Position numbers and translations under genes: made by a program. Of a stretch of 64,000 nucleotides of DNA, positions 3,589 through 57,355 are shown piece by piece. This stretch comes from Candidatus Liptonbacteria bacterium (GTDB lineage Bacteria; Patescibacteriota; Minisyncoccia; UBA6257; 2-01-FULL-56-20), in the NCBI GenBank assembly GCA_016204335.1, contig JACQKU010000014.1, forward strand, positions 4,988 to 68,987, written 5' to 3'. Numbering within the stretch: the first letter of the stretch is position 1; the number at the start of each line of letters is the position of its first letter. The notes beneath the pieces are model-generated. The model did no database searches and was not told the origin of the DNA. It saw nothing but the letters and a program-made list of their open reading frames with translations.

Positions 3589-3664
3589 GGGCATGTAGCT
3601 CAACGGTTAGAGCACGAAGCTTATACCTTCGGGGTTCCTGGTTCGAATCCAGGCATGCCCACCA
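3589..3664 (+). tRNA. tRNA-Ile with UAU anticodon (AUA decoder), CCA encoded
   Basis: GGGCATG-TA-GCTC-AACGGTTA-GAGC-A-CGAAG-CTTATAC-CTTCG-GGGTT-CCTGG-TTCGAAT-CCAGG-CATGCCC-ACCA. The 7-nt anticodon loop gives T34 A35 T36. Confidence 0.7.
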
Positions 3665-4591: not shown

Positions 4592-5021
4592 ATAATCTAT
4601 ATTAATGAAAGGATGTAATTAAAAGATATTTCCGAGCGGAAGTTCCTTTTTTGATTTCTGTTTTTCCATATATGGATAACCTGTTGATATCTTGATAGCC
4701 GAAGCGGAATTTATATAAGTAAATCAACACTTTTCTCCTTTGGAGAAAAGGTTTTTTATTTTTTGACTCATTCACGGAGTGGCGTATTATTGAGTGGAAG
4801 TGGGGAATTGTGGATGAATCTGGGGATAAAGCCCCTTTTCTGTGCATAACCCCATTCGCAACTTTATTTTTGAGAGCCGGCGTAAAATTTCTCCAGCGGA
4901 AATTTTCGCCTGCATCTCGCGCCGATGAGTCGCCAAGGGCGACACCAAGCTCATCGGCGCTCCGATAGCCTCTCAAAAATAAAATTGCTCATTCACTGGT
5001 TTTTGCAAGGCATGGTTAATT

Positions 5022-12035: not shown

Positions 12036-12082
12036 ACCTACTCCACCGTCACCGATTTCGCGAGATTGCGCGGGCGGTCGAC
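12036..12082 (+). repeat. repeat B copy 2 = native 3' end of glmS
   Basis: See 10808-10854. Confidence 0.75.
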
Positions 12083-13858
12083 GTTGAGTCCTTTTTGCCG
12101 CGCGAAATAATAGGCGAATAATTGAAGCGGAATCGCCGAAAGAATCGGCGAGAGCATTTCAAGCGTTTTTGGAACGTAGATGACGTCATCGGCGACACCG
12201 CGAACTTCTTCCGAACCCTCGGTCGCGAGCGCGATTATTTTTCCTTTCCGCGCTTTGATTTCCTGCATGTTCGAGAGCATTTTTTCGTAGACGCTGTCGC
12301 GGAGCGCGATTGCCATGGTCGGAAAATTCTCGTCAATCATCGCGAGCGGCCCGTGTTTCATTTCTCCGGCTCCGCATCCTTCCGCGTGGATATAGGAAAT
12401 TTCTTTCAGTTTCAGCGCGCCCTCCAGCGCGATGGGATAATTGTATTTTCTTCCGATGTAGAGAAAATCGCGCGAGTCCGCATATTTTTCCGCGAGCGAT
12501 TGCAAATATTCTTTTTGCCCCAAAATCGCCTCGATTTTTTCCGGCAGTAAAAGCAATTCTTCTGCTATCCGTTTTCCCATTGTGGCGGACATTTGCCTTT
12601 GCCTGCCGAGGAAAAGCGTAATGAGTGAAAGCGCGGTCAGTTGCGATATGAACGCTTTCGTGGACGCGACGCCGATTTCAGGGCCAGCATGGTTGTAAAT
12701 GCCCGCGTCTGTTTCGCGCGCGATGGTCGAGCCGATGGCGTTCACGACGCCGAGCGCGAGCGCGCCCTTCCGTTTTCCTTCGCGGATTGCTTCGAGCGTG
12801 TCGAGCGTTTCGCCCGACTGGGAAATAGCGAGAAGAATCGTATCGCCGTCAATGACCGGTTTTCTGTATCTGAACTCGGACCCTACTTCGACTTCAACGG
12901 GAATGCCGGCGTATTCCTCGAGCATATATTCGCCGACAAGACCGGCATAATACGCCGTGCCGCAGGCGACAATGATAATCCGTTTTACATCGCGCAGTTT
13001 ATCCGCAACCGATTCGAGCCCGCCGAGTTTCGCGAGTCCGTCCTTGACGATTAATCTTCCCCGAATCGTATTTTTCAAAACCTCCGGCGCTTCCATAATT
13101 TCCTTCAGCATAAAATGCTCGTAGCCGCCTTTTTGCGCCTGCGAAATATCCCACTCGATTGTTTCCGGCGTTCCGATTACGCGGTTGTGGTCGAGCGTGT
13201 AGATGTTGTGCGATGAAGGCGTAATGACCGCGATTTCGCCGTCGCGCAGGTAAATCACGTTTTTCGTGTGTCGCAGAATCGGCGACGGGTCGGACGCGAT
13301 GAAATTTTCGTTTTCGCCCAAGCCCAAAACAACCGGAGCGCCCATCCTGCCAGTGATGATTTTTTCCGGTTCTTTGCTGTATGCGATTGCGAGGCCATAT
13401 GTTCCTCGGACTTCGCGAAGCGAGGCAATTACCGCTTTTTCGAAGTCATTTTCCTTTTTCAAATTTTCTTCTATCAAATGGGCAAGAACTTCAGTGTCGG
13501 TGTCGGAAACGAACGTATGTTTTTTCTTGATGAGCTTGTCTTTGATTTCCTTGTAATTTTCTATGATGCCGTTGTGCGCTACCCAGATTTCACCGGCGCA
13601 ATCCGAATGCGGATGGGCGTTTATCTCGGTCGGCTCGCCGTGCGTTGCCCAGCGCAGATGCGCGATTCCGCTTTGCCCTTTAAAGTTTTGCGGAACTTTC
13701 GCTTTTAGATTGCCAACCGCGCCGACTGCCTTGACGGTTCCCGCTTCGGGAATAAAAATACCTGCCGAATCATATCCCCGGTATTCTAGGGAAGTAAGGC
13801 CGTCAAGAAGCACTTCCGCCGCGTTTTTCTTGCCCGTGTAAGCGAATATTCCACACAT
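12038..13858 (-). CDS. glmS: glutamine--fructose-6-phosphate aminotransferase
   Basis: MCGIFAYTGKK.. with N-terminal nucleophile Cys2, two SIS domains, C-terminal ..SVTVE; 606 aa. Confidence 0.95.
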   Translation of the reverse strand: MCGIFAYTGKKNAAEVLLDGLTSLEYRGYDSAGIFIPEAGTVKAVGAVGNLKAKVPQNFKGQSGIAHLRWATHGEPTEINAHPHSDCAGEIWVAHNGIIENYKEIKDKLIKKKHTFVSDTDTEVLAHLIEENLKKENDFEKAVIASLREVRGTYGLAIAYSKEPEKIITGRMGAPVVLGLGENENFIASDPSPILRHTKNVIYLRDGEIAVITPSSHNIYTLDHNRVIGTPETIEWDISQAQKGGYEHFMLKEIMEAPEVLKNTIRGRLIVKDGLAKLGGLESVADKLRDVKRIIIVACGTAYYAGLVGEYMLEEYAGIPVEVEVGSEFRYRKPVIDGDTILLAISQSGETLDTLEAIREGKRKGALALGVVNAIGSTIARETDAGIYNHAGPEIGVASTKAFISQLTALSLITLFLGRQRQMSATMGKRIAEELLLLPEKIEAILGQKEYLQSLAEKYADSRDFLYIGRKYNYPIALEGALKLKEISYIHAEGCGAGEMKHGPLAMIDENFPTMAIALRDSVYEKMLSNMQEIKARKGKIIALATEGSEEVRGVADDVIYVPKTLEMLSPILSAIPLQLFAYYFARQKGLNVDRPRNLAKSVTVE

Positions 13859-14803
13859 AGGTAAAGTATATCAAAGATTGGAGATTGAAACTTATTATAA
13901 AAACTTGAGGGGCGCCGCGCACGTGGCACGGACACCCCTCGTTGCTTCGCTCGCCGCCGCGTCCTAGCGGCGGTGGCGATTTCTGCCGAGCGGCTCGAGG
14001 AGGTCTCTCAGCTCGCCGGCGACGCACTGGACGCGTCGCGGCCGTGAATTCCTCCAAGCCCTCCTTGCGCACCGGCATGCTTCCAACTCCTGCACTACGG
14101 GCGCGCAGAGCATACGACAGACGTCGTCCTCATTGAATTGAACCCGACTTGCTTGAGCTCGTCGGGAGTGAACTCGAGTTTCGCCCAATACGTATACCGT
14201 CCGTGCTCGCGCGGATTCGCCTCTTCGAACCGGTGAGCCATTCTGGGGCTGACTCTGCGCGGGTTAATCACGCGCTGGAGCCCACTACTGTGATGCATAA
14301 GAGCCAAGTACCCGGAAGTCCGCCCTTCTCGAATGACCTGCAGGCGGACTCTTGCGGCCGGAACAGTGGTGCGAGTGATCGAGTTGGTCATGCGGCCCCC
14401 TTGTGGTGGGATTGGTTTATTCAATCCCGGGTTTGAGTTTGCTCCGACGCTCTTACAAAAAACAGAATCCCTATTCCGCCAAAGAGCCCTGCCACAACGG
14501 CGAAAGTTCCGCGGAGCAAGGGTTGCTCCACCACTTCGCCGCCTACGACGCACATCACGAATACCAAAATACAACACAACCCAGCTATTTTCACGGCACT
14601 CTCCTTAGTAGGTTAGAGTTAGAAGCATTTCAGTCATCTCTTCGCCTTGAGACGCAATAACCAAGAAAGTTAGTTTCCAAGTTCTTGCGTATCGAGGAGT
14701 TATATTATTAAAGAGCTGAAAGTAATATAGAACATTTAAGGGTATTTTGTCAATTTTTTTCGCTGCATTATCGCGGGCGCAAAAACCTGTTATAATCTCC
14801 CGA

Positions 14804-15922
14804 ATGAGGTTATACGAATTCGAAGGCAAGCGGCTTTTTGAGAAATACGGCATTCCGGTGCCGAAGAGCGTGTTGCTGGAAAAATCCGGAAAAGTTTCCG
14901 GCATTAAGTTGCCGGTCGTACTTAAAGCCCAGGTTTTGTCCGGTGAACGGAAAAGCGCGGGCGGTATTCTTTTCCCGAAAAATAAATCGGAACTTTCACA
15001 CGGGCTCAAAAAACTTTTCGCGGCGCATATCCGCGGCGAACCCGTTCAAAAAATTTTAGTTGAGGGGCGTATCTCGGCTTCGCGCGAATATTATCTTTCG
15101 TTGAGTTACGACACCGACACGCGCGGTCCGGTTTTGGCTTTTTCTTCCCGCGGCGGCTCGCGCATAGCCATCGCGCTGAAGGCGAATGTCGCGCCGCTCG
15201 ATATTCTTCTCGGCGCAAAACCGTTTTTAATCCGCGAAGCGCTGTCAAAAGGAAAAGTTCCGTCCGAAGATATCAACGGCCTCGCGAAGGTCATTATAAA
15301 TTTATGGAAGCTTTTTGTTTCCGAATACGCGCTCGTCGCCGAAATCAATCCGTTGTTTCGGACTCCGAGCGGAGAATTTATCGCGGGAGACGCGAAAGTC
15401 ATTCTTGACGACGAAAAATTGAACCCCGGCGAGCGGAGATTCATCGAACTCGGCGGCGACATCGCGATTTTGGCGTCCGGCGGCGGCGCGTCGCTTTTGA
15501 ACATTGACGCGCTTCTCCAGTATAAAGGGAAGCCCGCGAATTACACCGAATACTCCGGCAACCCTCCGGCTGACGTGGTAAAAGCGCTAACACAGCGCGT
15601 GCTCGGCAGGCCCGGGCTCAAAGGCGCGTGGGTAATCGGCGGCACCGCGAATTTCACGGACATTTACGAAACACTGAAAGGATTTATCGAAGGACTCCGG
15701 CAGGTAAAACCGAAACCGGCATATCCGATTGTTATCCGGCGCGACGGCCCCAATCAGGAAAAAGCGTTCGCGATGCTCCGCGAAGTAGCCAAAAAAGAGG
15801 GGTACGACTTCCACCTTTTTAATTCGAAAACCTCGATGGCGGAGTCGGCGAAATTGATGGTGAAATATGCGTACCATGATAAAATCAAAATTCAAACTGC
15901 AAATATCAAAATGAAAGAGTAA
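14804..15922 (+). CDS. succinyl-CoA synthetase beta / ATP-citrate lyase small-subunit-like ATP-grasp protein
   Basis: MRLYEFEGKRLFEKYGIPVP (SucC N-terminus), LVAEINPL, GGGASLL. The ORF-track start 14747 is probably an overcall. TATAAT at 14791-14796 precedes the ATG at 14804. Confidence 0.75.
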   Translation: MRLYEFEGKRLFEKYGIPVPKSVLLEKSGKVSGIKLPVVLKAQVLSGERKSAGGILFPKNKSELSHGLKKLFAAHIRGEPVQKILVEGRISASREYYLSLSYDTDTRGPVLAFSSRGGSRIAIALKANVAPLDILLGAKPFLIREALSKGKVPSEDINGLAKVIINLWKLFVSEYALVAEINPLFRTPSGEFIAGDAKVILDDEKLNPGERRFIELGGDIAILASGGGASLLNIDALLQYKGKPANYTEYSGNPPADVVKALTQRVLGRPGLKGAWVIGGTANFTDIYETLKGFIEGLRQVKPKPAYPIVIRRDGPNQEKAFAMLREVAKKEGYDFHLFNSKTSMAESAKLMVKYAYHDKIKIQTANIKMKE

Positions 15923-16001
15923 AATGCAAAAAGCCTTTAACAATTCTTTTTTAATTTCTTCTTTTTCATTTTGCATTTTGAGATTTGATTTTTGAATTTT
16001 C
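15881..16001 (+). repeat. MITE-like long hairpin family 1 (AAAATCAAAATTCAAACTGCAAA..ATGCAAAAA / TTTTTCATTTTGCATTTTGAGATTTGATTTTTGAATTTT), copy 1
   Basis: ~40-bp inverted arms; left arm encodes the last residues and stop of the upstream gene; right arm ends 2 nt before the sucD-like ATG; near-identical copy at 59735-59857. Confidence 0.8.
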
Positions 16002-16002
16002 C

Positions 16003-16914
16003 ATGAGCATTTTAGTCGACAAAAAAACGCGCGTTTTGATTCAGGGCATCACCGGGCATGAGGGCGCGCGGGCGTGCAACGAGATGCTTTCGTACGGGAC
16101 AAAAGTGCTCGCGGGCGTGACGCCGGGAAAAGGCGGACAGAAAATATCCGGCGTGCCTGTGTATGACACTGTGCGTCAGGCGCTCGCAAAACACCGGAGT
16201 ATAAACACCTCGCTCATCGCTGTTCCCGCGGCGGCGGTCAAAGACGCGGCAATGGAAGCGATATTCGCGGGAATTCCGTTAGTGAATATTCTCGCCGAGC
16301 ACGTGCCGACTTTGGATTGCGCGGAGATTGTCGCGCGGGCTCGCGCGAAAGGCACGATACTCGTCGGCCCTTCATCTGTCGGCGTGATTTCTCCAAAAGA
16401 GAAAGTGAAAATCGGAAGCATCGGGAGTTCGCTCGTTCGAAATGTGTTCACGCCCGGTTCGGTCGGCGTTGTTTCAAAAAGCGGAGGAATGACCGCGGAA
16501 ATCGCGGTGACGCTCACGAACGCAGGCATAGGCCAGAGCACGGTGCTCGGCATCGGCGGCGACCAAATTATCGGATTCGATTTCGTGGACGCGCTCAAAT
16601 TGTTTGGGAAGGATCCGGAAACGAAAGCAGTGATACTGTTCGGTGAAGTTGGCGGCACATACGAAGAGCAGGCGGCGGAGTTTATCCGAAAAGAAAAATT
16701 CAAGAAGCCGGTTGTCGCGGTGGTGGCGGGAAAATTTACCGCGCGCCTTCCGCAAGGCACCGTGTTGGGACATGCCGGCGCGATTGTCGCGAAAGGAAAA
16801 GGCGGATACGATTCGAAAGTGCGGGCTTTCAAAAAAGCGGGCGTGCCGGTTGCGGCTACTCTTGATGAAATTCCGTGGTTGCTTCGGCAGCTACTTCGTG
16901 GAAGAATGAAGTAA
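16003..16914 (+). CDS. succinyl-CoA synthetase alpha-like CoA-binding subunit
   Basis: MSILVDKKTRVLIQGITGHEGA, phosphohistidine loop GHAGAIV, 303 aa. Confidence 0.85.
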   Translation: MSILVDKKTRVLIQGITGHEGARACNEMLSYGTKVLAGVTPGKGGQKISGVPVYDTVRQALAKHRSINTSLIAVPAAAVKDAAMEAIFAGIPLVNILAEHVPTLDCAEIVARARAKGTILVGPSSVGVISPKEKVKIGSIGSSLVRNVFTPGSVGVVSKSGGMTAEIAVTLTNAGIGQSTVLGIGGDQIIGFDFVDALKLFGKDPETKAVILFGEVGGTYEEQAAEFIRKEKFKKPVVAVVAGKFTARLPQGTVLGHAGAIVAKGKGGYDSKVRAFKKAGVPVAATLDEIPWLLRQLLRGRMK

Positions 16915-17030
16915 GTCAATGCTACGCGGGAAATCAACGAGAAAAATGTTTTTTTGGGAATCAAGTTATCTTCTCTAATTCGCGCGAATAGGAGAATAAA
17001 AAGAAAAACAAATAAACAACAAATAAACAA

Positions 17031-17756
17031 ATGAAGTGGAAAACGGCGATCAGTACACATAAAAACGGCGAGCTTTATATCCGAGGCGAGGCGTTGACCA
17101 AACTCATCGAAAAGCGCTCTTTTGCCGAGGCGATTTTTCTTGTTTTGAAAGGGACATTTCCGAATAAGCGCGAGAAGGAAATGTTCGACGCGATTCTTGT
17201 GGCTCCGATCGAGCACGGCGTTGAAGCGCCGTCCGCGTTTGTCGCGCGGACAGTCGCTTCCGTCGGCAATCCGATGAATGTCGCGCTAGCGGCTGGATTT
17301 CTCGCGACGGGGGACTGGCACGGCGGCGCAATCGAACAAGCGGCAAAAATGTTTCAGTCGGATAAAACACCGGCGGAGATTGTCTCCGGCGCGCTCGCGA
17401 AAAAAGAGCGCGTTTCCGGATTCGGACACAAAATATATAAAGAAGCCGACCCGCGCGCGGCGGCAATTTTTGCCAAGGCGAAAAAACTGAAATTCTACGG
17501 CAAATATGCCGGCCGCGCGATTGCAATCCAAAAAGAACTTGAAAAACAGTCCGGCAAAAAATTGCCGCTCAACATCGACGCCGCGATTGCCGCGGTAATT
17601 TCGGAGCTCGGATTCGACTGGCGTCTGGGAAAAGCGTTTTTCGCGCTTGGACGCCTACCTGGAATAATCGCGCACGCGCACGAGGAAATGGTGAACGAAA
17701 AGCCATACCGGCGTTTTGAGGAAGGCGATGTGGAGTATGTCGGCAAACCAATATAG
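17031..17756 (+). CDS. citrate synthase-like / citryl-CoA lyase-like protein (short, 241 aa)
   Basis: GFGHKIYKEADPRAA matches the citrate synthase family GHRVYK..DPR signature. Confidence 0.7.
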   Translation: MKWKTAISTHKNGELYIRGEALTKLIEKRSFAEAIFLVLKGTFPNKREKEMFDAILVAPIEHGVEAPSAFVARTVASVGNPMNVALAAGFLATGDWHGGAIEQAAKMFQSDKTPAEIVSGALAKKERVSGFGHKIYKEADPRAAAIFAKAKKLKFYGKYAGRAIAIQKELEKQSGKKLPLNIDAAIAAVISELGFDWRLGKAFFALGRLPGIIAHAHEEMVNEKPYRRFEEGDVEYVGKPI

Positions 17757-17853: not shown

Positions 17854-18288
17854 ATGATCAAGATTCAGCAATTGAAAAAAGCGGATAAAGCGGCGGTGCG
17901 CGACCTCAATCATCTCTTGAAGCAGTTGCGTAAGAATCCTTCCGAACATAGCGGATCGCTTTTTGATCTTCGAAACATTGTCAGCGATAAAAAGATAGTA
18001 ATGATCGTCGCCCAAAACGGCAGGAACATTGTTGGTATGGCAACGCTCTATATCATCATTATGCTCGGAAAAACTGTTGGAACCGTCGAGGAAGTCGTGG
18101 TAGACAGCGCGTACAGGGGCAAAGGATTAGGGAAAAAGATACTTCAAATGCTTATTCGGGTTGCCCGCAAGAAAAAGGTTAAAAAGTTATATCTCACGAG
18201 CCGACCTTCGCGTGTTGCCGCCAATAAGCTTTACCAAAAACTCGGCTTCAAATTGAAAGAGACGAATCCTTATACGCTCCGGCTTTAA
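17854..18288 (+). CDS. GNAT family N-acetyltransferase
   Basis: VDSAYRGKGLGKKIL acetyl-CoA motif; 144 aa. Confidence 0.7.
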   Translation: MIKIQQLKKADKAAVRDLNHLLKQLRKNPSEHSGSLFDLRNIVSDKKIVMIVAQNGRNIVGMATLYIIIMLGKTVGTVEEVVVDSAYRGKGLGKKILQMLIRVARKKKVKKLYLTSRPSRVAANKLYQKLGFKLKETNPYTLRL

Positions 18289-24599: not shown

Positions 24600-26060
24600 C
24601 CTCCTCTGCTCACAATCTTCCCGCCGTTCCAGTCCAGGCCCCCACACGCCGCACAGGCGTTCGTCGGGGGTCTCGTTCATTTTTGAGACTTTTCGAAGTG
24701 AGAATACGTATATGGAAGTTTTTTCCCGCTTCTACCCAACGCGGAGATTTTCGTTTTGAAAGCAGCTCTCGGAGGCAACAAAAGCTTGGTGTCCGAAGGA
24801 CTTTTGTTGCTGAGAGGAAGACGAAAAACACCGCTGGAGTGTTTTTACGGCGGTGCTTTCAAAACGAAAACCGGAGCACCTGCACAAGTTCAGATACATA
24901 TGAGACTTTTCGAACGGTCGAAAAGTCATGCGAATCCATAGCAAAATAGCTCATACCCGAGGGTTTGTCTCAACCTACAACGAGGCGCTACGCTTGCGGG
25001 ATATGATTACCCGTAAAGCAGAGGAACGCGCCCGCATCCTCGCGTTCTGGCAGAAGCACGGGGATGCCGCAGCCAAAGAGGCGTTCACCATTTCTCGTCC
25101 CACCTTGTTTCGATGGCAGAACAATCTCCATGCCGGAAGCGGCAAGCTCGAGGCATTGAATCCGGGAAGCACCGCGCCGAAGAACAGACGGAAACGGACG
25201 ATCCCTGAATCAGTCAAAGACCTCATTCTCACGGAACGTTCACGCGAGCGCATAGGCAAAGAGAAACTTGCCTTGCTTCTCAAGGAAGACGGCATCGCAA
25301 CGCTCTCGCCGTCAACGGTCGGCAGGATGCTCGATGATATGAAGCGCGCCGGCAAACTTCCGAACCCGCGCAAACTCTCTTTCTCGGGAAAGACCGGACG
25401 GCTCAACGAGCGAATAGCCCCGCAATACAAGAAGAAACTGCGGAGCAATGGCCATGAGGGAGCTCTCGTGAAAGCCGATACCGTGGTGAGATTCACGAAC
25501 GGCATCAAGCGGTATATTCTGACCGCGATTGATCAAGAAACGAAGTTTGCTTTCGCGTATGGCTACCCCTCGCATGGCTCGCAGCATGCCGCTGAGTTTA
25601 TGCAGACCTTCAAAGACGTGGCGCCAATTTCTCTGACTCATGTGCAGACGGATAACGGAAGCGAATTTGCAAATCATTTTGAGTCCTATCTGACCACAGA
25701 AGGCATTATCCATTTCCATATTTATCCCCGTTCTCCCCAGATGAATGCGGAGATCGAACGATTCAACCGGACCTTGTCCGAAGCCTTTATCTCGAAGAAC
25801 AGACATTTGTTGGCATACGACCTTCCCGCATTCAATCGAGAACTTATGGATTGGTTACTGTGGTACAACACGCGCAGGCCGCACTGGTCGATTGGCTTGA
25901 TTTCTCCGTTGAGGTATATTGTGAATCAACTACCCGCCGAAGAGTCTCATATGTTGTGGACGAGTACAGCACCTTGACTTTTAGTTGCAAGCCATGCTAT
26001 ACTCTCTTCGAATGAGTGTGAATATGCCTTAACGATGATATCGACTAAGGTATGTCGCAT
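24600..26060 (+). mobile_element. probable IS element carrying the transposase; ends not resolved
   Basis: Transposase ORF preceded by a 330-bp structured non-coding tract with GAGACTTTTCGAA direct repeats; no clean terminal inverted repeats found by eye. Confidence 0.35.
24928..25977 (+). CDS. IS481-like family DDE transposase (HTH + rve integrase core)
   Basis: N-terminal HTH (ISRPTLFRWQ), DDE core with DNGSEF, C-terminal YNTRRPHWSIGLISP; alternative start at 25003. Confidence 0.8.
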   Translation: MRIHSKIAHTRGFVSTYNEALRLRDMITRKAEERARILAFWQKHGDAAAKEAFTISRPTLFRWQNNLHAGSGKLEALNPGSTAPKNRRKRTIPESVKDLILTERSRERIGKEKLALLLKEDGIATLSPSTVGRMLDDMKRAGKLPNPRKLSFSGKTGRLNERIAPQYKKKLRSNGHEGALVKADTVVRFTNGIKRYILTAIDQETKFAFAYGYPSHGSQHAAEFMQTFKDVAPISLTHVQTDNGSEFANHFESYLTTEGIIHFHIYPRSPQMNAEIERFNRTLSEAFISKNRHLLAYDLPAFNRELMDWLLWYNTRRPHWSIGLISPLRYIVNQLPAEESHMLWTSTAP

Positions 26061-37858: not shown

Positions 37859-38983
37859 ATGAACGGCACTGACTTCAAATCAAAAAATCCCACGATACTC
37901 GTTATTTTCGGAGCCACGGGGGATTTGACGAGCCGGAAGCTCATGCCGGCGCTTTTTCATCTTTACCGGAAGAAACTTTTACCGCCGCTGTTTCAGGTTG
38001 TTGGGTTTTCGCGGCAGGATTTGTCCGACGCGGAGTTCCAATCGAGAGTGAAAAAAACGATTGGCCGAAGCAAAAAAAATGGCGCCACGGTGGAAGTCGT
38101 CGAATCGTTTTCCAAACTTTTCATATACTCGAAAGGATTTTTCGAAAAAAAGAAGGGATACAAAGATTTGGCTGAACTGCTCGGATACCGCGATAACGAA
38201 TGGAGGACTTGCGCGAACAAACTTTTTTATCTCGCGGTGCCGCCGCAATATTACAAGGGCATTCTGAAAAATCTGACTGCTTCCGGACTGACCGAACCGT
38301 GCAGTCCCGAAGAGGGATGGACGCGGGTAATTGTCGAAAAACCGTTCGGCAGAAATCTCAAAACCGCAGAAGAGCTCGACGCCCTTTTGGGCAAACTCTT
38401 TAAAGAAGAGCAGATTTACCGCATCGACCATTATCTCGGCAAGGAAACGGTTCAAAACATTCTCGCGTTCAGGTTTTCGAATTATTTTCTCGAGCCGGCG
38501 TGGGATAAACATTCTATCGAGGATATCAGAATTCGCCTGTGGGAAACCGGCGGCGTCGAGGGCCGCGGCGGTTTTTACGATACGGCAGGGGCGCTTCGCG
38601 ACGTGGGGCAGAATCATTTACTTCAGCTTTTGGCGCTTTTCACCATGGAAAATCCGGGCAAGTTTGACGCCGAGTCAATCCGCCGCAGGCGCGCCGAGAC
38701 GCTCAACTGTCTTAAGATTTTTACGAAAAAAGACGTGGAGCGTTTTGCGGTCCGGGCGCAATATGAAGGATACAGGAATGAGAAAGACGTAAAATCAGAT
38801 TCAAATACGGAAACATATTTCCGGATTACCGCTTTTTTGGACACGCCGCGTTTTGAAGGAGTACCGCTATATCTTGAAAGCGGGAAGATGATGCCTGAAT
38901 CGAAAGCCGAAGTTGTCGTCACGTTCAAGCATCCGTTGCCGTGTCTGTGTCCCGTCGAGGGACAAGGGACAAGGGACAAGTAA
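37859..38983 (+). pseudogene. zwf: glucose-6-phosphate dehydrogenase, N-terminal 374 aa, truncated by frameshift in a (GGGACAA)x3 tract
   Basis: ILVIFGATGDLTSRKLMPALFHLY NADP motif; reading frame ends inside the heptamer tract 38958-38980; C-terminal G6PD homology continues in another frame (38941 ORF). Confidence 0.75.
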
Positions 38984-40347
38984 AACATTACAAGAATATC
39001 CTCCGGTATCAGATTCAGCCGAGAGAACGCATTACCACGTCATTCTGGGTTAAGCGGCCGGGCGCGGAGATGATAATGGAGGAAAAAGATTTTTCGTTCG
39101 ATTACAAAGGCGCGTTTTCAAAAGAACTCTTCGTTGACGCATACGAGCGGCTCTTGCTTGATGCCATTTCAGGCAATCAAACGCTTTTTGTAAGCACCGA
39201 AGAAATCGCGGCAAGCTGGAAATTTATCGACCCGATTTCAAGAGCGTGGAAGAAAAATTCCGCATCACTTCTTTCGTACGCAAAAAAAACACTCCCCATT
39301 TCCGAAGAACTGGATGGTTCGGGCTTGTCCCGAAAAGAAATCGGTTTGATAGGTCTTGGAAAAATGGGGAAAAATATGGCGCTCCGGCTCTTGGAAAAAA
39401 GATGGAATGTGATTGCGTACGATGTAAGCCCGGAAGCACGCCAGGAAATTATCTTGAAAGGCGGGGTTGCCACAAATAGTATTCCTGAACTGGTTGGACA
39501 GTTGGAATTACCCCGAACAATTTGGTTAATGGTACCTGCGGGCAAAATTCTCGACGAAGTAATTTTCGGCACTTCGGCAAAGCTCAGTGCCGACCCTGAG
39601 CAGCGTCGAAGGGTCGGTTCGAACGGCCTCGCCGCGCTTCTTGCAAAAGGCGACATGATAATAGACGGCGGCAATTCGCTTTACGAGGATTCAATCAGGC
39701 GCGCGAAAAAGTTGAAAAAATTCGGCATCAGTTTTCTCGACGCCGGTGTCTCGGGAGGTCCCGGAGGGGCGAGGAACGGCGCGTGCCTGATGGTGGGCGG
39801 AGAGAAATCGGCGTACGACAAGCGCGAAGATTTATTCCGCGACCTCGCGGTTTCGGACGGATATGAGTATGTCGGAAAAGCGGGAGCCGGCCATTTCGTG
39901 AAAATGATTCATAACGGCATCGAGTACGGAATGATGCAGGCGATTGCGGAAGGCTTCGATGTGCTTCGCACCGCGGACTTACGCGGACTGAACCCTTCGA
40001 CACGGCTCAGGGCAAGCGCGGACAAACGCGGAAAATTGAAATATAAATTTAACCTCAAGAAAATAGCCGGCATTTATAATCGTGGGAGCGTGATTGAATC
40101 GCGGCTCGTCGGCTGGCTCAAGAACGCGTTTGAGGAATACGGCGAAAACCTCGAAAGAATTTCGGGCTCTGTCGGCCATACCGGAGAAGGGGAATGGACG
40201 GTCAAAACCGCGAAAAAACTCGGCGTGCCCGCCAAGGTAATCGAAGACGCGTTCAAATTCCGCGTGCAGTCCGCGAAAAAACCGAGTTATGTTGGAAAAA
40301 TTCTCTCGGCATTGCGAAATCAGTTCGGAGGACATAAGGCAAAGTAA
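38941..40347 (+). CDS. gnd: G6PD C-terminal segment fused in-frame to 6-phosphogluconate dehydrogenase (short Gnd type)
   Basis: ILRYQIQPRE..FVDAYERLLLDAISGNQTLFV (G6PD C-terminus) runs without a stop into IGLIGLGKMGKNMALRL Rossmann start of 6PGDH and GAGHFVKMIHNGIEYG. Confidence 0.75.
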   Translation: MSVSRRGTRDKGQVKHYKNILRYQIQPRERITTSFWVKRPGAEMIMEEKDFSFDYKGAFSKELFVDAYERLLLDAISGNQTLFVSTEEIAASWKFIDPISRAWKKNSASLLSYAKKTLPISEELDGSGLSRKEIGLIGLGKMGKNMALRLLEKRWNVIAYDVSPEARQEIILKGGVATNSIPELVGQLELPRTIWLMVPAGKILDEVIFGTSAKLSADPEQRRRVGSNGLAALLAKGDMIIDGGNSLYEDSIRRAKKLKKFGISFLDAGVSGGPGGARNGACLMVGGEKSAYDKREDLFRDLAVSDGYEYVGKAGAGHFVKMIHNGIEYGMMQAIAEGFDVLRTADLRGLNPSTRLRASADKRGKLKYKFNLKKIAGIYNRGSVIESRLVGWLKNAFEEYGENLERISGSVGHTGEGEWTVKTAKKLGVPAKVIEDAFKFRVQSAKKPSYVGKILSALRNQFGGHKAK

Positions 40348-56347: not shown

Positions 56348-57355
56348 ATGAAACGAAAAAATGTCGTGACAATCGGCGGTGGCACGGGAAATTTTACGGT
56401 CCTGACGGCTCTAAAAAAATATCCGTTCAATTTGAACGCAATAGTGTCTATGGCGGACGACGGAGGCTCGAATGCAATGCTTCGCGACGAACTTGGCGTG
56501 CTCCCGCCGAGCGACATCTCGCAGTGCCTTGTGGCGCTTTCCGCTTCCGAAAAATGGATGCGGGAACTTATGAATTTCAAATTTCCGGGCGGCAGATTGC
56601 GCGGCCATCGCGTCGGCAATCTTTTTCTTTCTGCCCTTGAAATAATGAGCGGCAGTTTTGACGCGGCCGTGGAAAGGGTTTCGGAAATTCTCCGCATTGA
56701 AGGAAGGGTTATTCCCGTCACGCTCGAAAAAGTAAGATTGGCGGCGTATCTGAAAAACGGAACAATAATTCGCGGAGAGGACGGGATGGACGAAAAAATA
56801 TACGCCGCCGGCGCCGCCAATCTTAAAAAAATTTCTTTCCAGTCAAGAGCCCGGGCGAATCCGAAGGCGCTCCAAGCCATTCGGCATGCTGATTTTATCG
56901 TGATAGGCCCGGGGGACGTGTACACGAGCCTCGTACCGAATTTTCTTGTTTCCGGAATTCCGGACGCGATACGAAAAAGCCGGGCGAAGAAAATCTACAT
57001 CTGCAACCTGATGTCTAAAGCGGGACGCGCGGAAAAACTCGGCGTCGCCGATTTTGTGAACACGGTCGAATCGTATCTCGGCGCAAAATTTGATTACGTT
57101 GTTTACAATAACAGTCGGCCGCCGCCATCCTTGCTTGAAAAATATACTCGCAAAGGTGAGTCGTTGGTGAGATGGCATGGCGTTTCCGATTCTGACGCAT
57201 ATGGCAAGCGTTACATCGGCAGCGACCTCATAAACAGAACCGCTCCAAAACAGATTAAAGGAGACCTTTTGCAAAAGAGCAGGAGCTTAATCCGCCACGA
57301 CCCTTTGTGGCTCGGAAAACTGCTCGCGCGAGTTATTTCCTCCGGCCGAGAATGA
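56348..57355 (+). CDS. yvcK: gluconeogenesis factor / YvcK (UPF0052, CofD-like) family protein
   Basis: VVTIGGGTGNFTVLTAL, LPPSDISQCL. Confidence 0.8.
   Translation: MKRKNVVTIGGGTGNFTVLTALKKYPFNLNAIVSMADDGGSNAMLRDELGVLPPSDISQCLVALSASEKWMRELMNFKFPGGRLRGHRVGNLFLSALEIMSGSFDAAVERVSEILRIEGRVIPVTLEKVRLAAYLKNGTIIRGEDGMDEKIYAAGAANLKKISFQSRARANPKALQAIRHADFIVIGPGDVYTSLVPNFLVSGIPDAIRKSRAKKIYICNLMSKAGRAEKLGVADFVNTVESYLGAKFDYVVYNNSRPPPSLLEKYTRKGESLVRWHGVSDSDAYGKRYIGSDLINRTAPKQIKGDLLQKSRSLIRHDPLWLGKLLARVISSGRE

Follow-up and report, generated by a model that had tools for sequence, protein, structure and literature searches.

A citryl-CoA synthetase/citryl-CoA lyase-type gene trio and its amino-sugar gene neighbors in a Candidatus Liptonbacteria genome

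The stretch of DNA analyzed here, positions 4,988 to 68,987 of contig JACQKU010000014.1 from a Candidatus Liptonbacteria bacterium (assembly GCA_016204335.1), is 64,000 nucleotides long and is referred to in full as the window. It carries three consecutive plus-strand genes whose products very probably form a two-enzyme system for ATP-dependent citrate cleavage, of the citryl-CoA synthetase (CCS)/citryl-CoA lyase (CCL) type. Open reading frame 1 (ORF1; positions 14804 to 15922, 372 aa) is ccsA-like and corresponds to the large, beta-type subunit of the synthetase; ORF2 (16003 to 16914, 303 aa from its ATG) is ccsB-like and corresponds to the small, alpha-type subunit; and ORF3 (17031 to 17756, 241 aa) is a ccl gene for a predicted citryl-CoA lyase with a shortened citrate-synthase fold. 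The ATG of ORF1 at 14804 agrees with the N termini of its homologues, and a TTG at 14747 is improbable as a start; for ORF2, an alternative TTG start at 15985 would give 309 aa. ORF2 and ORF3 have their own stop and start codons, with 116 bp between them. An initial annotation, made from the letters of the sequence, had described consecutive SucC-like, SucD-like, and citrate-synthase-like ORFs, with the phosphohistidine loop GHAGA in the second and the signature GHKIYK..DPR in the third. All of this was recovered: the three ORFs lie on the plus strand and match their Pfam families with E values far beyond chance, the loop occupies residues 256 to 260 of ORF2, and the signature reads GFGHKIYK..DPR at residues 130 to 142 of ORF3.

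Family assignment of the three genes

ORF3 passes the curated NCBIfam citryl-CoA lyase model NF004869 (275 bits versus a cut-off of 212), and its best solved relative is the CCL of Hydrogenobacter thermophilus (6hxp; E value of 7.5e-72, 245 bits, 50% identity over 238 aligned positions). Scores against other members of the fold were far lower, at about 54 bits for the lyase module of ATP-citrate lyase (ACL) and at most 96 bits for citrate synthases, while the best citrate synthase model, TIGR01800 (citrate synthase II), gave 118 bits versus a cut-off of 421. The protein shares with citrate synthases (PF00285, Citrate_synt) the catalytic small-domain region and the GHR/KxYK..DPR signature, but it covers only the C-terminal part of that family (profile positions 162 to 355, E value of 2.3e-42) and is 241 aa long, whereas citrate synthases have about 370 to 430 aa. 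The motifs HGGA (nt 17319 to 17330, plus strand), GFGHKIYK (17418 to 17441, plus), DPR (17448 to 17456, plus), and NIDAA (17571 to 17585, plus) are all in place, and the catalytic residues that they hold, His97 in HGGA, His133 in GFGHKIYK, and Asp183 in NIDAA, align with the catalytic positions of Thermus thermophilus citrate synthase (1iom) and of CCL.

ORF1 combines an N-terminal ATP-grasp_2 domain (E value of 9.6e-31) with a C-terminal domain of the PF16114 type, "ATP citrate lyase citrate-binding" (E value of 5.1e-22, 78.7 bits versus a cut-off of 26.8). As a whole protein, its best match in the Protein Data Bank (PDB) is H. thermophilus CcsA (6hxq_B; 145 bits, 3e-41). Scored separately, the two halves point in different directions: the ATP-grasp half gives 87 bits to Thermus SucC, 64 to CcsA, and 22 to AclB, whereas the C-terminal half gives 95.7 bits to Chlorobium AclB, 81.8 to CcsA, 52 to human ACLY, and 39.9 to SucC. 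The NCBIfam SucC models align well only with residues 1 to 206 and remain far below their cut-offs (TIGR01016, 170.6 versus 375.6 bits; NF001913, 158.5 versus 370 bits). In the C-terminal half, three plus-strand motifs, PANYTEYSGNP (nt 15533 to 15565), GGTANFTD (15638 to 15661), and IRRDGP (15734 to 15751), match in a residue alignment the EYSG, ANFT(D/N), and RRGGP loops of Chlorobium, Methanothrix, and human ACL; at these positions CcsA has ANNT and RRNGP, and SucC has FLD(V/I)GGGA, FGGI, and R(L/V)xG. An inspection of substrate-specificity residues, which the initial annotation had proposed as a check, thus finds three loops of the ACL/CCS type in place of the SucC motifs. The loops (ANYTEYSGNP, GGTANFTD, and IRRDGP) are invariant or nearly so among 24 homologues. 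We take loops of the EYSG/ANFT/RRxGP type to be the citrate-contacting loops, after the human ACLY-citrate structure, in which Gly309, Asn346, Thr348, and Arg379 were reportedly described as citrate contacts by Sun et al. in 2010.

A neighbor-joining tree of the C-terminal domain of the large subunit (158 columns, 200 bootstraps, few references, distance method only) separated citrate-type sequences from SucC with 100% bootstrap support and placed ORF1 inside the citrate-type group. The large subunits of the candidate phyla radiation (CPR) and of DPANN archaea formed a clade of their own (100% bootstrap) apart from SucC, Hydrogenobacter CcsA, and ACL, and this clade joined ACL (88% bootstrap), not Hydrogenobacter CcsA. 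By its sequence, ORF1 is assigned to a distinct, shortened large-subunit lineage. Within the clade, Microgenomates-type CPR sequences grouped with DPANN (82% bootstrap) and not with Parcubacteria (loci L061, L073, L075, and L084 with L067, L074, L086, and L087; locus numbers refer to the set of related loci described below), which may point to transfer between these two ultra-small groups.

ORF2 has the Pfam domains CoA_binding and Ligase_CoA, with the motif QGITG in the CoA-binding Rossmann domain (nt 16042 to 16056, plus strand), the motif GEVGG (16642 to 16656, plus), and the phosphohistidine loop GHAGA (16768 to 16782, plus). The initial annotation had called it an alpha-like subunit, and its CoA-binding and GHAGA features bear this out, with the correction that ORF2 taken alone is closer to SucD than to CcsB. 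Its PDB matches are archaeal SucD (2yv2; 2.3e-89), CcsB (6hxq_A; 2.7e-67), and Chlorobium AclA (2.9e-45), corresponding to 285 to 303 bits for archaeal and Thermus SucD (303 for 2yv2), 230 bits for CcsB, and 158 bits for Chlorobium AclA; against the NCBIfam SucD model it scores 310 bits, slightly below the cut-off of 336. With 303 aa versus 353 aa, it is without the C-terminal extension of about 50 aa found in CcsB. The family placement of ORF2 and ORF3 is a comparison of bit scores, and the tree covers the large subunit.

To our knowledge, CCS/CCL is biochemically known only from autotrophs with a reductive Krebs cycle, where it takes part in CO2 fixation; the CcsA/CcsB citryl-CoA synthetase and Ccl of H. 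thermophilus and the Aquificaceae are reportedly the subject of work by Aoshima et al. in 2004. The trio resembles the H. thermophilus system in its three separate polypeptides, in its domain set and gene logic, and in a lyase of about 240 to 270 aa with citrate-synthase-type His/His/Asp residues. It differs from that system in several respects: (i) CcsA has 429 aa versus 372 in ORF1, in which the ATP-grasp half is nearer to SucC and the citrate-binding half nearer to ACL; (ii) the host, an ultra-small bacterium, is non-autotrophic and shows no genes of a reductive tricarboxylic acid (TCA) cycle within the window; and (iii) the trio keeps company with genes for amino sugars and acetyltransferases instead of genes for carbon fixation. 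A reductive TCA setting was equally lacking elsewhere, as TCA or reductive TCA genes were found neither in the window nor in 79 of the 80 related loci. The remark of the initial annotation that the window holds no further TCA genes stands for all of its approximately 70 ORFs, as judged by translation, Pfam, and NCBIfam, and phmmer queries with aconitase, isocitrate dehydrogenase (IDH), phosphoenolpyruvate (PEP) carboxylase, and malic enzyme gave no match in the 64 kb.

With ACL (AclB/AclA of Chlorobium and Methanothrix; eukaryotic ACLY), the trio shares the overall chemistry and the EYSG, ANFTD, and RRxGP loops of ORF1, but in ACL the alpha-type and lyase modules are fused into a chain of about 600 aa or more. 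ACL, whether fused or "split," was rejected as an identification because the alpha-type and lyase modules of the trio are encoded by separate genes, and ORF3 is far closer to free CCL. Of the two options named in the initial annotation, the CCS/CCL route is accordingly the one that survives, on the strength of NF004869, 6hxp, 6hxq_B, and the ACL/CCS-type loops, while a split ACL is disfavored by the unfused genes and the ORF3 scores (245 versus about 54 bits). Canonical SucCD has the same fold family and phosphohistidine mechanism, and ORF2 is nearly a SucD, but the C-terminal domain of ORF1 is of the citrate-binding type, and the SucC motifs FGGI and R-L/V-x-G are replaced. A canonical SucCD pair next to a citrate synthase was also rejected, given the citrate-binding domain, a SucC score below half of the cut-off, and an intact CCL; the refuting outcome named in the initial annotation, subunits falling firmly within canonical SucCD, is answered by the score of ORF1, 170 bits versus a SucC cut-off of 375.

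Conservation of the trio and its neighbors in related genomes

More than 100 homologues of ORF1 were found at 55 to 88% identity, and all of the named ones are from Patescibacteria; in databases they go by the names "ATP-grasp," "citrate-binding domain protein," or "succinyl-CoA synthetase beta." Of the clusters in a 50%-identity library, 203 matched ORF1 at an E value of 1e-30 or below, and both citrate-type motifs were present in 75 of the best 150 clusters. One genome per species was then scanned, giving a set of 80 related loci. The set, of which 76 loci are from CPR, includes Parcubacteria-type lineages (Colwell-, Harrison-, Adler-, Niyogi-, Ryan-, Sung-, Kaiser-, Wildermuth-, Yanofsky-, Andersen-, and Nomurabacteria, and Spechtbacterales), Microgenomates (Woese-, Davies-, and Curtissbacteria), and DPANN (Iainarchaeum and Woesearchaeota). 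Among genomes with the trio, CP066686.1 and OY970314.1 (Woesebacteria), OY969413.1 (Kaiserbacteria), and JACOWZ01 (Colwellbacteria, with a contig of 645 kb) are closed or nearly so. The gene order ccsA-ccsB-ccl was recovered in 68 loci and broken in none; in the remaining 12, the sequence ends before the position of ccl, or the ccl ORF was lost in the overlap filter. ccsB directly follows ccsA in 76 loci, and ccsB and ccl are unfused throughout. We read the trio as being kept under selection across the 80 species.

The occurrence of such sequences has been touched on before: in trees of a 2022 preprint, CPR and DPANN sequences annotated as succinyl-CoA synthetase or citrate synthase fall with CCS or CCL, their role not being discussed (10.1101/2022.10.25.513756). 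On the function of CCS/CCL in CPR or DPANN, our literature search found nothing beyond the passing mention in this preprint. Many trio-bearing third-party-annotation assemblies are labeled "uncultured Candidatus Saccharibacteria," "Gammaproteobacteria," or "Methanosarcinales"; these labels look unreliable, as gene content and similarity suggest Parcubacteria, Microgenomates, or DPANN.

In a census in which the ORFs of the 80 loci were clustered without prior labels, the most frequent partners of the trio were glmS (25 loci), a glmU-like gene (19 loci), and yvcK/glmR (17 loci). The glmU-like partner encodes a bifunctional GlmU of the archaeal type (TIGR03992), and the YvcK/GlmR partner was identified by TIGR01826; YvcK/GlmR is a UDP-GlcNAc-binding regulator of GlmS. 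In 20 species, glmS lies directly upstream of ccsA on the same strand, with a gap of at most 22 bp in 17 of them, and the CcsA proteins of these 20 species are only 48 to 81% identical. The recurring operon is glmS-ccsA-ccsB-ccl-(GNAT)-yvcK-glmU, where GNAT denotes a gene for an N-acetyltransferase of that family, and the arrangement glmS-ccsA-ccsB-ccl-yvcK-glmU is complete in seven loci (L024, L027, L028, L031, L032, L047, and L048). Five others (L009 to L011, L015, and L018) have a GNAT of the type found in the window after ccl and no glmU within about 8 kb. In operons of the glmS-ccsAB-ccl type, a GNAT resembling GNA1, the eukaryotic glucosamine-6-phosphate N-acetyltransferase, and full-length GlmU appear to be mutually exclusive, L033 being the exception; a small HAD-like protein (c18) usually comes next after the GNAT. 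In three loci the glmS ORF is about 1118 aa long instead of the usual 606 to 610 aa or so (L024, 6622 to 9978; L030, 6639 to 9998; L041, 6637 to 9996) and probably contains an intein or some other sizeable insert.

Elsewhere the trio lies in a different, unrelated context, inside nonulosonic-acid/amino-sugar clusters (for example, in L017, L034, L051, L055, L056, L059, and L087), which hold NeuB, a CMP-sugar cytidylyltransferase, a DegT aminotransferase, a GFO oxidoreductase, epimerases, and another GNAT; pathways of this type make di-N-acetylated sugars. Acetyltransferases also adjoin the trio in other arrangements: a GNAT gene between ccsB and ccl (L060), a separate hexapeptide acetyltransferase after ccl that corresponds to the GlmU C-terminal half (L043), hexapeptide acetyltransferases ahead of ccsA (L068 and L083), and an MBOAT O-acyltransferase beside the trio (L038, L045, L054, and L057). 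Overall, a homologue of one of these mutually unrelated families (GNAT, hexapeptide, or MBOAT) lies within 2.5 kb of the trio in 33 of the 80 loci, the distance being no more than 300 bp in 24. Amino-sugar or sugar-modification genes occur in 52 loci and are at most two genes away from the trio in 48 of these. Malate dehydrogenase, aconitase, acetate-forming enzymes, and TCA genes were not recurrent beside the trio in this set.

The window itself fits into this picture. Directly 3' of ccl, it has a GNAT gene (17854 to 18288, plus strand, 144 aa), and glmS (12038 to 13858, minus strand, 606 aa), whose protein begins MCGIF and which encodes glutamine--fructose-6-phosphate aminotransferase, is divergent from ccsA across a GC-rich spacer of 945 bp (13859 to 14803). 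Glms, trio, and GNAT are arranged alike in the closest relative, L002 (86% identity), whose syntenic glmS shows the Pfam GATase and SIS domains. Orthologues of the GNAT occupy the same position after ccl in L002, L009 to L011, L015, L018, L019, and L049. A yvcK/glmR gene, which directly follows ccl in many relatives, is present in the window at 56348 to 57355 (TIGR01826, 267 bits), about 38 kb from the trio.

The best single-sequence PDB match of the GNAT is Trypanosoma brucei GNA1 (3fb3/3i3g; 4.6e-10), an entry whose identity is confirmed in PMC3413214. In a profile search, GNA1 proteins of several eukaryotes (Arabidopsis thaliana, Cryptosporidium parvum, Caenorhabditis elegans, human, and yeast) were among the top matches, with a small margin over other GNATs, and the top three Foldseek hits of an AlphaFold2 model (predicted local distance difference test [pLDDT] score of 94.7) were T. 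brucei GNA1, with other GNATs scoring similarly. The (I/V)E(D/E)VVV...RG.GLG motif and the conserved Tyr in LYxKLGF are common to GNA1 and the GNAT of the window, but their identity is only about 30%, and databases name the protein RimI-like. We regard it as putatively GNA1-like and as a likely consumer of the acetyl-CoA that the trio would supply.

Within the spacer, only about 100 nt beside glmS are conserved in L002, comprising a hairpin (GAGGGG...CCCCTC) with a T-run on the minus strand, followed by TATAAT. The rest, with a possible 57-aa hydrophobic peptide and a 98-aa ORF on the minus strand, is not conserved; neither ORF matched Pfam or NCBIfam or resembled the 181-aa ORF found there in L002. 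A search of the 945 bp for structured RNA, such as a glmS ribozyme, gave nothing at the Rfam gathering threshold and only a chance psaA match at an E value of 1 or below. In a promoter and terminator scan of the spacer, counts were not clearly above shuffled expectation, and no convincing plus-strand promoter for the trio was seen.

Proposed role and competing explanations

CPR bacteria are generally reconstructed as being without a Krebs cycle or fatty-acid synthesis (PMC12992704, PMC12281837), so that sugar acetylation would be a major demand on their acetyl-CoA. Taken together, the neighbors of the trio consume acetyl-CoA for N- or O-acetylation of envelope sugars, and the simplest reading is that the system runs in the cleavage direction and supplies this acetyl-CoA. 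In the mechanism that we propose, the ATP-grasp domain of ORF1 would take ATP and its C-terminal domain citrate, presumably acquired from the environment or a host; in ORF2, the GHAGA histidine would be phosphorylated and would hand its phosphate to citrate; CoA bound by ORF2 would replace the phosphate to give citryl-CoA; and ORF3 would split citryl-CoA into acetyl-CoA and oxaloacetate by means of its His/His/Asp residues. The acetyl-CoA would then go to acetyltransferases that make acetylated envelope sugars, with GlmS supplying glucosamine-6-phosphate and the GNA1-like GNAT (GlmU in other lineages) acetylating the amino sugar, and the CoA freed by the acetyltransferase would return to the synthetase. 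We infer the substrate, the reaction direction, the source of citrate, the fate of oxaloacetate, and the substrate of the GNAT, and the role is a case of guilt by association with gene neighbors, which is not proof. As a whole, the explanation of the trio as a CCS/CCL system supplying acetyl-CoA for sugar acetylation is in our judgment reasonably probable, while the specific role in this lineage is nearly evenly poised, tilting slightly toward being correct.

Several observations weigh against this explanation: (i) 28 of the 80 loci have no sugar-related neighbor, those of the Woesebacteria type being flanked by dnaG and rpoD; (ii) neither a citrate transporter nor an oxaloacetate-using enzyme recurs near the trio in the 80 loci; (iii) part of the glmS linkage is inherited synteny and not a series of independent events; (iv) CPR genomes are rich in envelope genes, and the neighbor counts stand without a same-genome background rate; (v) Patescibacteria metagenome-assembled genomes (MAGs) often have other routes to acetyl-CoA, namely, acs, porA, and ackA (PMC12992704); (vi) the GNA1 assignment of the GNAT is weak because other GNATs score about as high; (vii) ORF2 alone resembles SucD (303 bits) more than CcsB (230 bits); (viii) an AlphaFold2 model of ORF1 (pLDDT score of 83.7) superposes equally well on SucC and CcsA, so that the fold is uninformative on specificity; and (ix) for every CPR and DPANN member, the enzymology of the trio is predicted from sequence, which does not settle the direction of the reaction.

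A tenth point comes from a single locus, L061 of Candidatus Iainarchaeum (JAGVWE010000002.1, 5142 to 16501). Here the order is PEP carboxylase (archaeal type), aconitase, IDH, ccsA, ccsB, and ccl, followed by malic enzyme and the alpha subunit of an ADP-forming acyl-CoA synthetase, a layout that reads as an oxidative branch with the trio in the usual place of citrate synthase. Aconitase, IDH, PEP carboxylase, and malic enzyme are absent from the other 79 loci.

CPR bacteria are usually reconstructed as fermentative and acetate-forming, and the trio might accordingly be catabolic, breaking down scavenged citrate for energy, with acetyl-CoA converted to acetate and ATP by an ADP-forming acetyl-CoA synthetase or Pta/AckA, oxaloacetate passing through pyruvate to fermentation products, and sugar acetylation being a side beneficiary. 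The ackA, acs, and porA genes reported in Patescibacteria MAGs (PMC12992704), the di-/tricarboxylate transporters found in some Patescibacteria (PMC9868632), and the acyl-CoA synthetase subunit and malic enzyme near the trio of L061 are consistent with such a use. But acetate-forming enzymes, oxaloacetate decarboxylases, malic enzymes, and transporters are not recurrent beside the trio in the 76 CPR loci, and the operon partners are biosynthetic, which leaves a catabolic function unlikely, if still worth keeping in view.

The system could also run in reverse, the lyase condensing acetyl-CoA with oxaloacetate and the synthetase freeing citrate with a gain of ATP, as a replacement for citrate synthase. 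The overall reaction of the ACL type is close to equilibrium, and Moeller et al. in 1987 are said to have described ATP-citrate lyase working in the citrate-forming, ATP-yielding direction in Desulfobacter postgatei. The layout of L061 corresponds to an oxidative branch toward 2-oxoglutarate, and the position of its trio makes a reverse, ATP-yielding direction, or a partial reductive branch, plausible in that lineage. For the family at large we hold the reverse direction to be improbable: aconitase, IDH, PEP carboxylase, and malic enzyme are missing from the other 79 loci and from the window, citrate would lead nowhere in a cell that lacks aconitase, and the recurrent neighbors consume acetyl-CoA, none producing it.

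That the enzymes act on another hydroxy-, di-, or tricarboxylic acid (malate, citramalate, 2-methylcitrate, or homocitrate), with the lyase cleaving the matching CoA ester, has some appeal in that sequence cannot by itself prove a substrate, that the CPR/DPANN large subunits stand apart from the characterized CcsA and ACL, and that ORF1 is 30 to 60 aa shorter than its CcsA or ACL counterpart; yet the family has kept, almost without variation, all three loops that set citrate-type enzymes apart from succinate-type ones, and ORF3 is 50% identical to an enzyme characterized on citryl-CoA and passes the curated CCL model, so we rate a different substrate as quite improbable. An ordinary SucCD with a degenerate citrate synthase, as remnants of a Krebs cycle that has since been lost, would account for the SucD-like scores of ORF2 (303 bits; 310 versus the NCBIfam cut-off of 336), for the ATP-grasp half of ORF1 (87 bits to Thermus SucC versus 64 to CcsA), and for the database name "succinyl-CoA synthetase beta subunit" given to some homologues, but it is contradicted by the citrate-binding instead of SucC-type C-terminal domain of ORF1, with less than half of the SucC cut-off score, by an ORF3 that is a full-length, catalytically intact CCL and no fragment, and by the conservation of the trio under selection in 80 species, and it has very little chance of being right.

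The enzyme type and its presence in CPR and DPANN were already known; the apparent novelty lies in a separate, minimal clade that is consistently embedded in operons for amino sugars and acetyltransferases, which suggests a non-autotrophic function as a supplier of acetyl-CoA. CCS/CCL chemistry is predicted here in organisms described as being without a Krebs cycle and fatty-acid synthesis. The gene names in databases matter as well, since "succinyl-CoA synthetase" and "citrate synthase" could be taken for a partial Krebs cycle in CPR/DPANN reconstructions, a misannotation that the present assignment corrects. A wider generalization, in which CPR and some DPANN use citrate from the host or the environment as an acetyl-group currency, with a minimal CCS/CCL system wired into UDP-GlcNAc, nonulosonic-acid, and O-acetylation operons, is put forward tentatively and could well prove wrong. 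If the proposed role were right, (i) citrate would be named as a metabolite that ultra-small episymbionts may need, which would aid the design of media for these mostly uncultivated organisms; (ii) a possible source of acetyl-CoA for peptidoglycan precursors in reduced genomes would be identified; and (iii) a deep-branching, unfused relative would be available for studying the evolution of ATP-citrate lyase and citrate synthase. The wider generalization would give CCS/CCL a physiological role outside carbon fixation and would provide a prokaryotic counterpart of the eukaryotic citrate/ATP-citrate-lyase shuttle, in which ACLY likewise draws biosynthetic acetyl-CoA from imported citrate; with an ATP-grasp half like that of SucC, a citrate-binding half like that of ACL, and an alpha subunit like SucD, the clade would also be a candidate early form of the ACL lineage.

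Other features of the window

The gene content of the window is of the CPR (Patescibacteria) type, with FtsH, MraZ/RsmH, a penicillin-binding protein, MurF, MurB, SecA, small ORFs, and four tRNAs, and the GNAT at 17854 to 18288 shows 100% identity to a protein placed by NCBI in a Candidatus Liptonbacteria MAG. Its central-carbon genes comprise only triosephosphate isomerase, a glucose-6-phosphate dehydrogenase (G6PD)/6-phosphogluconate dehydrogenase (6PGD) pair, and a D-2-hydroxyacid dehydrogenase. The G6PD seems to be split: the ORF at 37859 to 38983 holds G6PD_N and the first 168 or so positions of G6PD_C, and the overlapping ORF at 38941 to 40347 opens with G6PD_C positions 179 to 277 and runs on into 6PGD, so that the region from 37859 to 40347 either encodes a G6PD-6PGD fusion or contains a frameshift (or sequencing error). 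An integrase-core transposase (rve/rve_3, HTH_32) at 24928 to 25977 marks an insertion sequence. At 3589 to 3664 lies a tRNA-Ile with the anticodon TAT (UAU), a species that is uncommon in bacteria, in which AUA is normally read by a lysidine-modified CAU tRNA.

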